Positions 26,960-29,528 of a DNA stretch of 64,000 nucleotides are shown one piece after another. Position 1 is the stretch's first letter. Every line of letters begins with the position of its first letter. Made by a program: the position numbers and the translations under genes. The notes below the pieces were generated by a model. That model had not been told where the DNA came from and made no database searches. It was given only the letters and a program-made list of their open reading frames with translations. This DNA comes from Escherichia phage NHEP36, in sequence record PQ511151.1. The stretch is one strand, 5' to 3'.

Positions 26960-27517
26960 ATGTCTGAACAAAAACATAAAAATAACTATGTGAATAATAA
27001 AGAGCTTCTCGCCGCTATAATCGAGTGGAAAAAGGAGCTCTTAAATAATAAAGACCCAAACAAAATTATTCGTCAGAATGATACCATCGGTTTAGCAATT
27101 ATGCTTATCGCCGAAGGCCTGTCCAAACGTTTCAACTTTTCAGGATATACCCAGTCTTGGAAGCAGGAGATGATTGCAGACGGGATTGAAGCCTCTATTA
27201 AGGGACTTCATAATTTCGACGAAACTAAGTACAATAACCCACATGCATACATAACTCGAGCTTGTTTTAATGCTTTTGTCCAACGTATCAAAAAAGAACG
27301 TAAGGAAGTTGCAAAGAAATATAGTTACTTCGTTCATAACGTCTACGACAGTCATGACGATGATATGGTAGCGTTGGTAGATGAAACGTTTATTCAAGAC
27401 ATCTACGATAAAATGACGCATTATGAAGAATCCGCTTATAAAGCTCCTGGGGCTGAAAAGAAGGAAGTTGTTAGCGATTCGCCTAGTTTGGATTTTTTAT
27501 ATGAGGATGACAATTGA
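26960..27517 (+). CDS. 55: late transcription sigma factor gp55
   Basis: [24 protein letters not shown]...[39 protein letters not shown] matches T4 gp55. Confidence 0.95.
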
Positions 27518-27716
27518 CATCTCTAACTACTTAGAAGAACCTTTTGACGAAGCAATCCCTTATTTGGTAAAACTGTTGGGTCGTGAATTTAAAATTAATT
27601 TTGACATCGACCCTTTGGATCCACATGACGTGTCATTTTCGATAAATGGGACTCCGGTTGAGTATGAGTTCTGTATTGAAGAGGATGGACGTTTTTATTT
27701 TAATTTAATGAGATAA
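27507..27716 (+). CDS. hypothetical protein
   Basis: Internal Met 29 of ORF 27423..27716, overlapping gene 55 stop. Confidence 0.45.
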
Positions 27717-27717
27717 T

Positions 27718-28041
27718 ATGACTACCGAGATTATTGAAAATAAAGAAGCAGAAGATGCAGTAGCTAAAATGCTACAAGAAATCCAAAAGAAAAATGAAGC
27801 TGAAGCACGTAAAAAATCTGAAAAGATTCTTAAAAAGAATCGTTTTGAACTAAACCGTCTTTATGCTCATGCTCAAGAAGCAGCAATTCAAAACAACTTC
27901 GAAGCTTACGAATATGCTATTAAGAAATCTCGGGATATTCTACGACAACCATATAATGACAAGTTAATTAAAATCCAGTGGGTTACTACTCGTCAGGCTA
28001 TTGAGGACATCATTAATGGCACTAGTTCAAACAAAGTTTAA
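27718..28041 (+). CDS. hypothetical coiled-coil protein
   Basis: ORF track 107 aa. Confidence 0.5.
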   Translation: MTTEIIENKEAEDAVAKMLQEIQKKNEAEARKKSEKILKKNRFELNRLYAHAQEAAIQNNFEAYEYAIKKSRDILRQPYNDKLIKIQWVTTRQAIEDIINGTSSNKV

Positions 28042-28222
28042 ACGTCTTAATCTGAATGCAGGATTCACCCTTAAATTGGGAGGTCCTCTTTGTGTTAAAA
28101 TCTCTGAAAAGGAATACCACGACGGTTCTATTACAGAAGTTTGTCCACCTATTGTAAAGGCAGACCCAAAACAACTCGTGTGGGTTGATTCATTTCAAGT
28201 TAAGAAATGGTGGAAACGATGA
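28016..28222 (+). CDS. hypothetical protein
   Basis: Internal Met 6 of ORF 28001..28222; 26-nt overlap with upstream gene lowers confidence. Confidence 0.4.
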   Translation: MALVQTKFKRLNLNAGFTLKLGGPLCVKISEKEYHDGSITEVCPPIVKADPKQLVWVDSFQVKKWWKR

Positions 28223-28261
28223 GAGAAATCGATTTAGGCATTTTCTGAGAGGTGATTATGC

Positions 28262-28435
28262 ATGACGAACATCCCGACTTCTGAAAATTTCGATAAAATC
28301 CGTAAAGGCAAAGCAGAAAGAATGAGACGTTTTAAAGAGTCTTATGATAAAGCTAAAGCCGAAGGAACTATTACATACAAGCCCATTCGATTTAAAAGTT
28401 CAAATGAGCCTCTGTACGGTGTACTATGTGGATAG
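28262..28435 (+). CDS. hypothetical small protein (57 aa)
   Basis: ORF read from sequence with GAGGTGA RBS; strong terminator 28435..28462 follows its stop. Confidence 0.4.
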   Translation: MTNIPTSENFDKIRKGKAERMRRFKESYDKAKAEGTITYKPIRFKSSNEPLYGVLCG

Positions 28436-28462
28436 GAACTCTTCGGAGTTCCTTTTTTTTTT
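28435..28462 (+). terminator. rho-independent terminator
   Basis: ggaactc-ttcg-gagttcc followed by a 10-T run. Confidence 0.8.
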
Positions 28463-28485
28463 GCTTTATAAACGGATGATAGAAT
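28462..28485 (+). promoter_or_regulatory. middle (MotA-type) promoter upstream of gene 47
   Basis: MotA box TGCTTTA 11 nt upstream of -10 TAGAAT; same arrangement as 61590..61614. Confidence 0.55.
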
Positions 28486-28508
28486 GAATTAACTAATGAG
28501 GAAATAAT

Positions 28509-29528
28509 ATGAAAATTTTGCACTTAGGCGACTTCCACATCGGAGTCAAACAAGACGACCCATGGGTTCAAGATATTCAACGCGATGGTATTCGTCAAGC
28601 AATTGAATACTCTAAGAAACACGGGATTAAAACTTGGATTCAGTACGGTGATTGGTTTGATGTCCGTAAAGCAATAACACATCGTACAATGGAATTCAAT
28701 CGTGAAATCGTTGATATGATTTCTAAAGCAGGCATTCACGTTCATGTCACGATAGGAAACCATGACATGGCGTTTAAGAATACAATAACACCTAACACTG
28801 TTTCTGAATTGTTAACTCAATTTGAAAACTTTACTATTTATGAGCATCCAACTACTGTAGATTTTGACGGGTGTCTGATTGATATCGTTCCATGGATGTG
28901 TGAAGAAAATACAGGCGAAATCTTAGAGCACATCAAGACTTCTTCCGCAGCGTATTGTGTTGGGCACTGGGAACTGAATGGCTTTTATTTCTATAAAGGA
29001 ATGAAGTCTCATGGGCTTGAACCTGATTTCTTAAAGACTTATAAACAAGTCTGGTCCGGCCACTTCCACACAATCTCTGAAGCTGCTAACGTCAAATATA
29101 TTGGGACACCATGGACCCTTACTGCAGGCGATGAGAACGACCCTCGAGGATTCTGGGTATTTGACACTGATGTTGAACGTATGGAATTTATTCCTAATGA
29201 AACAACATGGCATCGACGAATCACTTATCCGTTTAAAGGCAAAATCAATTATTCTGATTATACTAATCTAGCCGTACGTGTTATAGTATCAGAAATTGAT
29301 TCAGATTTGACTAAGTTTGAATCTGAACTTGAAAAAGTAGTTCACTCTCTTCGTATGGTTTCTAAAGTTGATAACAGTGTTGAATCTGATGATGACCAGG
29401 AAATCGAGATTAAATCACTTCAAGATATCATTAAAGAATATATTGACGCGATTCCAGATATCTCAGACGAAGACAGAGAAGCGCTGGTCAAATATTCCAA
29501 CGAACTTTATATTGAGGCAACACAATGA
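28509..29528 (+). CDS. 47: recombination endonuclease subunit gp47 (Mre11-like)
   Basis: Phosphoesterase motifs LHLGDFH, GDWFD, GNHD; middle promoter upstream. Confidence 0.9.
   Translation: MKILHLGDFHIGVKQDDPWVQDIQRDGIRQAIEYSKKHGIKTWIQYGDWFDVRKAITHRTMEFNREIVDMISKAGIHVHVTIGNHDMAFKNTITPNTVSELLTQFENFTIYEHPTTVDFDGCLIDIVPWMCEENTGEILEHIKTSSAAYCVGHWELNGFYFYKGMKSHGLEPDFLKTYKQVWSGHFHTISEAANVKYIGTPWTLTAGDENDPRGFWVFDTDVERMEFIPNETTWHRRITYPFKGKINYSDYTNLAVRVIVSEIDSDLTKFESELEKVVHSLRMVSKVDNSVESDDDQEIEIKSLQDIIKEYIDAIPDISDEDREALVKYSNELYIEATQ

Follow-up and report, generated by a model that had tools for sequence, protein, structure and literature searches.

Predicted replacement of DNA glucosylation by an arabinosyl-5-hydroxycytosine cassette in Escherichia phage NHEP36, an RB69-like Mosigvirus

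We analyzed a 64,000-nt stretch of DNA from Escherichia phage NHEP36 (sequence record PQ511151.1; hereafter, the window), in which the interval between gene 55 and gene 47 is devoid of the alpha-glucosyltransferase gene (a-gt) that phage T4 carries at this position. We are highly confident that the window belongs to a Mosigvirus in which a cassette for arabinosyl-5-hydroxycytosine replaces DNA glucosylation and whose 55–47 interval lacks mobB, a-gt, and 47.1. No observation contradicts this explanation, and the evidence for a replaced modification is the cassette itself, not the empty interval. A first-pass annotation of the window had argued from the absence of a-gt, together with that of the beta-glucosyltransferase gene (b-gt), that glucosylation had given way to another modification. 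Its conclusion is upheld by an RB69-type cassette with 90–100% protein identity, but its premise is weak on its own: an empty 55–47 interval is by itself no evidence against glucosylation because phage CC31, which also lacks a-gt, has retained gene 42 and b-gt along with a ba-gt-like gene.

Origin of the window

The source of the window is a Mosigvirus, i.e., an RB69-like relative of the T-even phages. Using megablast, we found that 136 phage records match positions 26500–29600 at 95–99% identity, all of them RB69-like (Mosigvirus), with NHEP11 as the best match (98.9%). Local blastn revealed that NHEP11 is collinear with the window over nearly its whole length at 96–99% identity, the collinearity breaking only at 3781–4191, 6254–6602, and 58794–58995, and the complete NHEP11 genome served as a stand-in for the sequence beyond the 64-kb window of the ~168-kb genome. 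As determined by tblastn with T4 proteins, the gene order on the (+) strand is 55, 47, 46, 43, uvsX, 41, 61, 56, and 39/60, which is the order of the T4 early region read along transcription.

A cassette in the place of gene 42 and b-gt

Between gene 43 and uvsX, where T4 carries imm.1, imm, 42, b-gt, and segA, a 6.6-kb cassette (37.9–44.4 kb) occupies the position of T4 42 and b-gt. Its proteins are 98–100% identical to those encoded by RB69 ORF055c–ORF045c (90% for ORF049c), and the Pfam domains found among them are SIS, NTP_transferase, U32, and Thymidylat_synt. The imm.1 and imm genes, which T4 has between genes 43 and 42, are located at 48168–48837, after gene 41, indicating that the cassette displaced, or stands for, the whole T4 imm.1-imm-42-b-gt-segA block. 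What is described below on gene content, homology, signature residues, and GT-B fold was computed here.

The gene in the slot of T4 gene 42 encodes a thymidylate-synthase homolog, the sole gene 42 relative in the window, which shares 25% identity with T4 gp42 and is near-identical to the proteins in PDB entries 9iqc, 9ir2, and 9iqu (E = 4.5e-162). We read its signature residues from an alignment with T4 gp42 and phage td: in E. coli ThyA numbering, its MRSQN corresponds to D169N, its QLDF to N177D, and its EYPC to L143E (td: QRSVD, LPFN, and LPPC, respectively). The D169N substitution is diagnostic of 5-hydroxy-dCMP synthases, and the three changes together match the published signature of these enzymes (Lee et al. 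2026, PMC13326640). Directly 3′ of this gene, a GT-B glycosyltransferase occupies the slot of b-gt, to which it is related by positional and functional analogy only because the two are not sequence homologs. The beginning of a second GT-B transferase, a homolog of RB69 ORF003c (located between gene 39 and rIIA.1 in the Mosigvirus system), adjoins gene 39 and is interrupted by the window end; it is near-identical to a glycosyltransferase of phage HY126 (PDB entries 9iqz and 9ir0, E = 3e-112). The phage thus has fold-level distant relatives of a-gt, not orthologs, one in the b-gt slot and one beside gene 39.

All three enzyme genes of a putative cassette-type route to a nucleoside diphosphate (NDP)-linked arabinofuranose were also found (98–100% identity to RB69). 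The first encodes a SIS-domain protein whose homologs are labeled arabinose 5-phosphate isomerase in the records of relatives, in line with the role given in PMC13326640. The second encodes a 561-aa protein with an N-terminal NTP_transferase domain (Pfam) and weak kinase-family matches over residues 308–409, and the third a HAD-like phosphatase; the two are analogous to AfhE and AfhF of phage HY126, respectively. The AfhE and AfhF activities and other data on HY126 and on phages Bas46/47 are those of Mahler et al. 2025 and He et al. 2026, as cited by PMC13326640. The last cassette gene encodes a protein that is annotated as thymidylate kinase in relatives, although its match to the dTMP-kinase P-loop is weak. 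The RB69 record splits two proteins of the cassette (ORF053c/052c and ORF047c/046c); in the window, they are encoded by intact single open reading frames (ORFs) of 561 and 299 aa, respectively, which agrees with the published view that the split RB69 ORFs 46/47 and 52/53 are sequencing errors (PMC13326640). The coordinates of all features are given in Table 1.

Proposed modification pathway

RB69 DNA contains arabinose and no glucose, and ORF003c was proposed as the transferase and ORF052c–ORF055c as the genes of sugar activation (Thomas et al. 2018, PMC6024577). Tandem mass spectrometry (MS/MS) and nuclear magnetic resonance (NMR) identified the modified base as 5-hydroxycytosine that carries alpha-D-arabinofuranose (alpha-D-Araf) or beta-D-Araf-(1-3)-alpha-D-Araf in an ether linkage at C5 (Lee et al. 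2026, PMC13326640). According to the same work, RB69 gp48 converts dCMP to 5-hydroxy-dCMP in a reaction that needs O2 and flavin, and gp46:47 and gp3 are the putative transferases of RB69 (PMC13326640). Mosigvirus NP has the same adducts (Durham collection paper, PMC13390438), and both mono- and di-arabinosyl-5-hydroxy-dC are on record for RB69 and NP from liquid chromatography-MS/MS and NMR (PMC13326640, PMC13390438). Published chemistry shows these two adducts for HY126 and Bas46/47 as well. What is proposed below on the chemistry, on the activity of the synthase, and on sugar activation derives from such published experiments on phages with 90–100% identical cassette enzymes and probably holds for NHEP36 as well.

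In the proposed pathway, the dCTPase gp56 would take unmodified dCTP out of the nucleotide pool, and the flavin- and O2-dependent synthase homolog (42276–42992) would convert dCMP to 5-hydroxy-dCMP, which would be phosphorylated and then incorporated instead of C. The isomerase, the kinase/nucleotidyltransferase, and the HAD-like phosphatase (37902–40790) would lead from ribulose-5-phosphate to UDP-arabinofuranose, and the two GT-B transferases would load the C5 hydroxyl with two arabinose units, one after the other. We infer the sugar donor of RB69-type transferases and the order in which they act, the literature likewise inferring their order and substrates, with the transferase encoded at 42992–43891 as the putative first and the ORF003c homolog starting at 63497 as the putative second. 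The product would be DNA with mono- and di-arabinosyl-5-hydroxycytosine that is resistant to many restriction enzymes. The replacement would go deeper than the sugar because the base would be 5-hydroxycytosine, not hydroxymethylcytosine, and a close gene 42 ortholog is missing; likewise, no glucosyltransferase would be needed because the phage would make no glucosyl-hydroxymethylcytosine.

Searches for a-gt and b-gt

The first-pass annotation had suggested tBLASTn of T4 a-gt and b-gt against the complete genome as a check, and this search, run on the window and on the complete NHEP11 genome, revealed no significant homolog of either gene. Specifically, the best tblastn E-values in the window were 2.9 for a-gt (400 aa) and 1.1 for b-gt (351 aa), and those in the NHEP11 genome were 0.04 and 2.8, respectively. 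Unfiltered phmmer (--max), run on every six-frame ORF of 50 aa or more in the window and in NHEP11, gave best E-values of 0.2 for a-gt and 0.86 for b-gt. Both absences noted in the first-pass annotation, that of a-gt from the 55–47 interval and that of b-gt, were thereby confirmed, the latter for the window and the NHEP11 genome. One candidate for a divergent a-gt emerged, an alignment of a-gt residues 18–86 with NHEP11 positions 50812–50991 (E = 0.04), which lie outside the window and encode part of a 200-aa hypothetical protein; we rejected it as a chance match because this protein has no Pfam domain.

Next, the two T4 genes were searched against the phage collection by tblastn. A total of 657 records matched a-gt, approximately 504 of them at 80% identity or more, a number that matches that of Escherichia, Shigella, Yersinia, and related T4-type phages, and 143 at 60–80% identity, essentially Klebsiella and Raoultella phages. 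The b-gt gene matched 126 records, which belong to other genera. These bands of identity and organism leave no room for the ~150 Mosigvirus records, indicating that none appears among the matches. A published search of RB69 for glucosyltransferases, with T2 ba-gt included, was likewise negative (Thomas et al. 2018, PMC6024577).

The interval between gene 55 and gene 47

The interval holds only four short ORFs (69, 107, 68, and 57 aa) and a terminator, just as the first-pass annotation had described it (ORF table, sequence, and RNA fold). All four ORFs have counterparts in T4 (a-gt.5, a-gt.4, a-gt.3, and a-gt.2; 45–76% identity, tblastn E = 5e-14 to 2e-32), and the order 55, a-gt.5, a-gt.4, a-gt.3, a-gt.2 is common to the window, T4, and RB69, whose GenBank record shows ORFs of identical length in this interval, annotated as a-gt.2 to a-gt.5, and no a-gt. 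The a-gt.5 homolog is 98.6% identical to that of RB69 and matches Pfam DUF5491 (46.6 bits; cut-off, 27), the a-gt.4 homolog matches DUF2654 (96.6 bits), and the a-gt.2 homolog matches DUF5486 (97.3 bits), all above the cut-offs; the a-gt.3 homolog matched no family in the Pfam search and phrog_1648 at E = 7e-34. Since T4 also has these four genes, the window really differs from it here only in lacking the block of ~2.2 kb that follows them in T4 and comprises mobB, a-gt, and 47.1.

Because the a-gt.2 to a-gt.5 proteins are shared by phages irrespective of their DNA sugar (T4, RB69, and CC31), a role in glycosylation is improbable. We found no functional study of them in the full-text literature, and PHROG and Pfam assign them only to families of unknown function. 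The label "head maturation protease" that phrog_17354 confers on a-gt.2 covers 34 residues and was judged to be an annotation artifact.

The a-gt.2 gene is separated from gene 47 by a 73-nt spacer that holds only a terminator and a promoter motif; no a-gt remnant was found in it. The terminator consists of the hairpin AGGAACUC-UUCG-GAGUUCCU at 28434–28453 followed by U10, and its RNA fold (−12 kcal/mol, z = −3.06) was not equaled in stability by any of 200 shuffles. T4 keeps this hairpin, likewise 3′ of a-gt.2. Immediately downstream lies TGCTTTA-N11-TAGAAT, which we take to fit the T4 consensus of MotA-dependent middle promoters and which, judged from that consensus, is a candidate promoter for genes 47 and 46. 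We counted 18 copies of the pattern TGCTTYA-N10-13-TANNNT in the window against an expectation of 2.3 (approximately eightfold enrichment), with further copies at 38666–38690, before the kinase/nucleotidyltransferase gene, and at 61590–61614, before gene 39. The late-promoter consensus TATAAATA was not enriched in the window (4 versus 7.5 expected) and did not occur within the 55–47 interval. As shown by an alignment of the junction, homology with T4 spans a-gt.2, the terminator, and TTGCTTTATAAA, which is the final stretch that aligns with T4 ahead of its mobB/a-gt/47.1 block; it ends at ~28472 and restarts at the start codon of gene 47.

Table 1. Features of the window discussed in the text (positions are those of the 64,000-nt window)
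Feature	Position	Strand	Evidence and remarks
Gene 55, late sigma factor	26960..27517	+	185 aa; 91% to T4 gp55, 98% to RB69 gp55; phrog_234 E 7e-68
a-gt.5 homolog	27501..27716	+	71 aa from ATG 27501 or 69 aa from ATG 27507; T4 a-gt.5 tblastn E 5e-14
a-gt.4 homolog	27718..28041	+	107 aa; 58% to T4 a-gt.4, E 2e-32; 99% to RB69
a-gt.3 homolog	28016..28222	+	68 aa; 71% to T4 a-gt.3, E 6e-29; 97% to RB69
a-gt.2 homolog	28262..28435	+	57 aa; 76% to T4 a-gt.2, E 3e-24; 95% to RB69
Intrinsic terminator	28434..28463	+	8-bp stem, UUCG loop, U10 tail; overlaps a-gt.2 stop codon; terminator scan
MotA-box type middle-promoter motif	28462..28485	+	TGCTTTA, 11 nt, TAGAAT; 24 nt upstream of gene 47 ATG
Gene 47, SbcD-like recombination nuclease subunit	28509..29528	+	339 aa; 76% to T4 gp47, 99.7% to RB69; phrog_100 E 2e-135
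Arabinose-5-phosphate isomerase (SIS domain), putative	37902..38537	+	100% to RB69 ORF055c; Pfam SIS E 1e-10; first cassette gene after gene 43
Bifunctional sugar-1-phosphate nucleotidyltransferase/sugar kinase, putative	38719..40404	+	561 aa; 98.6% and 98.8% to RB69 ORF053c and ORF052c
HAD-like sugar phosphatase, putative	40389..40790	+	97.7% to RB69 ORF051c; NCBIfam TIGR01689 capsule biosynthesis phosphatase E 2e-13, below cut-off
Peptidase_U32-family protein	40832..42007	+	99.5% to RB69 ORF050c; Pfam PF01136 42.2 bits (cut-off 22.4)
76-aa ORF			between the cassette genes at 40832..42007 and 42276..42992
Thymidylate-synthase homolog, predicted 5-hydroxy-dCMP synthase	42276..42992	+	99.2% to RB69 ORF048c; T4 gene 42 slot
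GT-B glycosyltransferase, proposed first arabinosyltransferase	42992..43891	+	299 aa; T4 b-gt slot
Thymidylate-kinase-like nucleotide kinase	43893..44441	+	98.9% to RB69 ORF045c; last cassette gene before uvsX
Gene 56, dCTPase	51880..52401	+	72% to T4 gp56, 97% to RB69; Pfam dUTPase_2
Second GT-B transferase, start (RB69 ORF003c homolog)	63497..64000	+	168 of 366 codons; 99.4% to ORF003c residues 1–168

Alternative explanations

Could the phage still make glucosyl-hydroxymethylcytosine, with its two divergent GT-B enzymes acting as unrecognised glucosyltransferases? We regard this as extremely improbable: the sole gene 42 relative is only 25% identical and has the D169N signature of 5-hydroxy-dCMP synthases, not of hydroxymethylases; the cassette encodes a route from arabinose-5-phosphate to NDP-arabinose; and arabinose, but no glucose, is present in the DNA of both RB69 and Mosigvirus NP, the enzymes of the window being 98–100% identical to those of RB69. 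Relocation of a-gt or b-gt to a part of the genome outside the window is just as improbable. Only 64 of ~168 kb are visible, and imm and imm.1 have indeed moved relative to T4, but the complete genome of NHEP11, which is 98–99% identical across the window, yielded nothing better than the rejected match at E = 0.04, whose target has no Pfam domain, the identity bands of the collection-wide tblastn search leave no room for the Mosigvirus records, and the published RB69 search was negative (PMC6024577). A recent deletion of a-gt in this lineage, itself the end of glucosylation, is unlikely, although it has far more in its favor than either of these two ideas. The homology with T4 ends cleanly at the MotA-box after the terminator and restarts at the start of gene 47, with ~33 nt in between, and the T4 a-gt gene is adjoined by that of a homing endonuclease, mobB. 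However, the CC31 interval is also without a-gt while gene 42 and b-gt are kept, homologs of a-gt occur only in Tequatrovirus-type and Klebsiella phages, and the 73-nt spacer has no a-gt remnant. Judged from the comparison of breakpoints with T4 and from the CC31 layout, acquisition of mobB, a-gt, and 47.1 by the T4 lineage is no less likely than their loss here.

Several limits apply to the preferred explanation, replacement of glucosylation by an RB69-type arabinosylation cassette. A chemical modification is not readable from sequence, the absence of a-gt and b-gt outside the window rests on relatives, and the second transferase is visible for its first 168 codons only. Moreover, the RB69-type transferases gp46:47 and gp3 lack in vitro proof of arabinosylation according to PMC13326640, and any contribution of the thymidylate-kinase-like protein, the U32-family protein, or the 76-aa ORF to the cassette pathway is hypothetical.

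Comparison with known systems

In gene order, cassette, synthase signature, and 55–47 layout, the window is the same as the Mosigvirus system represented by RB69, HY126, Bas46/Bas47, and NP, with no functionally meaningful difference; the ORF splits of the RB69 record are the one point in which they diverge. Compared with T4, the overall scheme is alike, i.e., a dCTPase, an enzyme of the thymidylate synthase family that acts on dCMP, incorporation of the modified base, and glycosylation by GT-B enzymes, with the modifying enzyme and one transferase sharing the slot between gene 43 and uvsX. The differences concern the base (folate-derived hydroxymethylcytosine in T4 versus 5-hydroxycytosine made with flavin and O2 in the type seen here), the sugar (glucose versus arabinofuranose with a phage-encoded nucleotide-sugar pathway), and the location of the second transferase gene (between genes 55 and 47 versus beside gene 39). 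The Karamvirus CC31 resembles the window in its 55–47 interval, which holds a-gt.5, a-gt.4, a-gt.3, and one small ORF but not a-gt; it differs in having, beside uvsX, gene 42 and b-gt as well as a ba-gt-like gene, whereas the window has neither a gene 42 ortholog nor b-gt. A 55–47 interval devoid of a-gt is thus frequent beyond the T4-type phages.

More distant versions of the cassette are found in Acinetobacter phage DLP3 and Dhakavirus JS10, both of which have homologous genes for the synthase, the first GT-B transferase, the kinase/nucleotidyltransferase, and the phosphatase. DLP3 has three transferases and tri-arabinosyl adducts, and its cluster, as described, has no U32-family gene (PMC13326640). 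The JS10 cassette lacks both the isomerase and the U32-family gene, and no tblastn match to the SIS protein of the window was found in JS10 positions 14000–34000; JS10 presumably relies on the host KdsD/GutQ for the isomerase step. The gene order in JS10 also differs, with the kinase gene between those of the phosphatase and the synthase.

A possible role for the U32-family protein

A tentative and rather improbable idea is that the U32-family protein of the cassette, together with a phage DAHP synthase, provides a second, prephenate-dependent and O2-independent route to 5-hydroxycytosine. The protein appears in PMC13326640 only with the table label "sugar or heterocycle reductase" and without discussion, and we found no pathway role for it in the literature searched, a search that did not extend to Mahler et al. 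2025 and He et al. 2026. Among the members of the U32 family are RlhA, which forms 5-hydroxycytidine in 23S rRNA, TrhP, which hydroxylates tRNA U34 in parallel to an O2-dependent enzyme, and UbiU/UbiV, all Fe-S hydroxylases that work without O2; prephenate is linked to all of them and is the proven oxygen donor for UbiU/V (PMC5727448, PMC6599085, PMC10990095). In a profile comparison (hhalign), the phage protein aligned with E. coli UbiU, UbiV, RlhA, and TrhP (probability, 90%; E = 1.6e-6), pairwise phmmer against these paralogs being uninformative. In this alignment, C197, C214, and C238 of the phage protein correspond to UbiU C169, C176, and C232, i.e., to three of the four cluster cysteines, which we take to be ligands of the Fe-S cluster.

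DAHP synthase catalyzes the first step towards prephenate. An AroFGH-type DAHP synthase is encoded at positions 113295–114287 of NHEP11, ~108 kb away and outside the window (TIGR00034, 428 bits; cut-off, 173). We found that it occurs in 212 records of the phage collection and the U32 gene in 221, with almost equal genus profiles: Escherichia (124 versus 136), Klebsiella (25 versus 26), Shigella (12 versus 14), Proteus (7 versus 7), Serratia (6 versus 7), Enterobacter (4 versus 4), and Edwardsiella (3 versus 3). The 5-hydroxy-dCMP synthase occurs in 345 records, 57 of them Acinetobacter, a genus that is missing from the U32 matches listed (ten commonest host-genus words, with seven more beyond the listing; 45 rows). 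The support for such a route consists of co-distribution at the genus level and one control, JS10, whose cassette is devoid of a U32 gene and which encodes no DAHP synthase at the syntenic position beside cd. At the same time, JS10 shows that the modification in E. coli can do without the U32 gene. Since the synthase needs O2 and these phages carry genes for an anaerobic ribonucleotide reductase, the U32/DAHP synthase pair could sustain cytosine hydroxylation in the anoxic gut.

Other features of the window

In T4, the dam gene (GATC adenine methyltransferase) lies between genes 56 and 61, which corresponds to positions 51600–52400 of the window; no homolog of T4 dam was found by tblastn (best E = 1.3 in the window and 0.65 in the NHEP11 genome). 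The topoisomerase large subunit is encoded at 61637–63451 by a single fused 60-plus-39 gene (95% to RB69 gp60plus39), without the split, mobA, and the gene 60 bypass element of T4. Finally, several small genes at 3427–4526 open with the internal-protein capsid-targeting motif MKxxQEFIxE (MKMCQEFIAEA and MKTYQEFITEA). This region is a variable internal-protein locus; in T4, loci of this type encode anti-restriction proteins such as IPI.

Implications

The finding is already known in detail for RB69-type phages: their lack of a-gt and b-gt has been on record since the genome annotation of 2003, the replacing modification was identified in 2018, and its chemistry and enzymology were resolved in 2025–2026. 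For NHEP36, the window can be annotated with confidence as holding most of the arabinosyl-5-hydroxycytosine pathway, and the empty 55–47 interval is unsuitable on its own as a marker of a non-glucose modification. If the U32-family protein and the DAHP synthase indeed had the proposed role, this would account for replication without O2 in a gut phage that depends on an O2-requiring hydroxylase for each of its cytosines, and prephenate-dependent hydroxylation would extend from RNA and quinones to DNA precursors.

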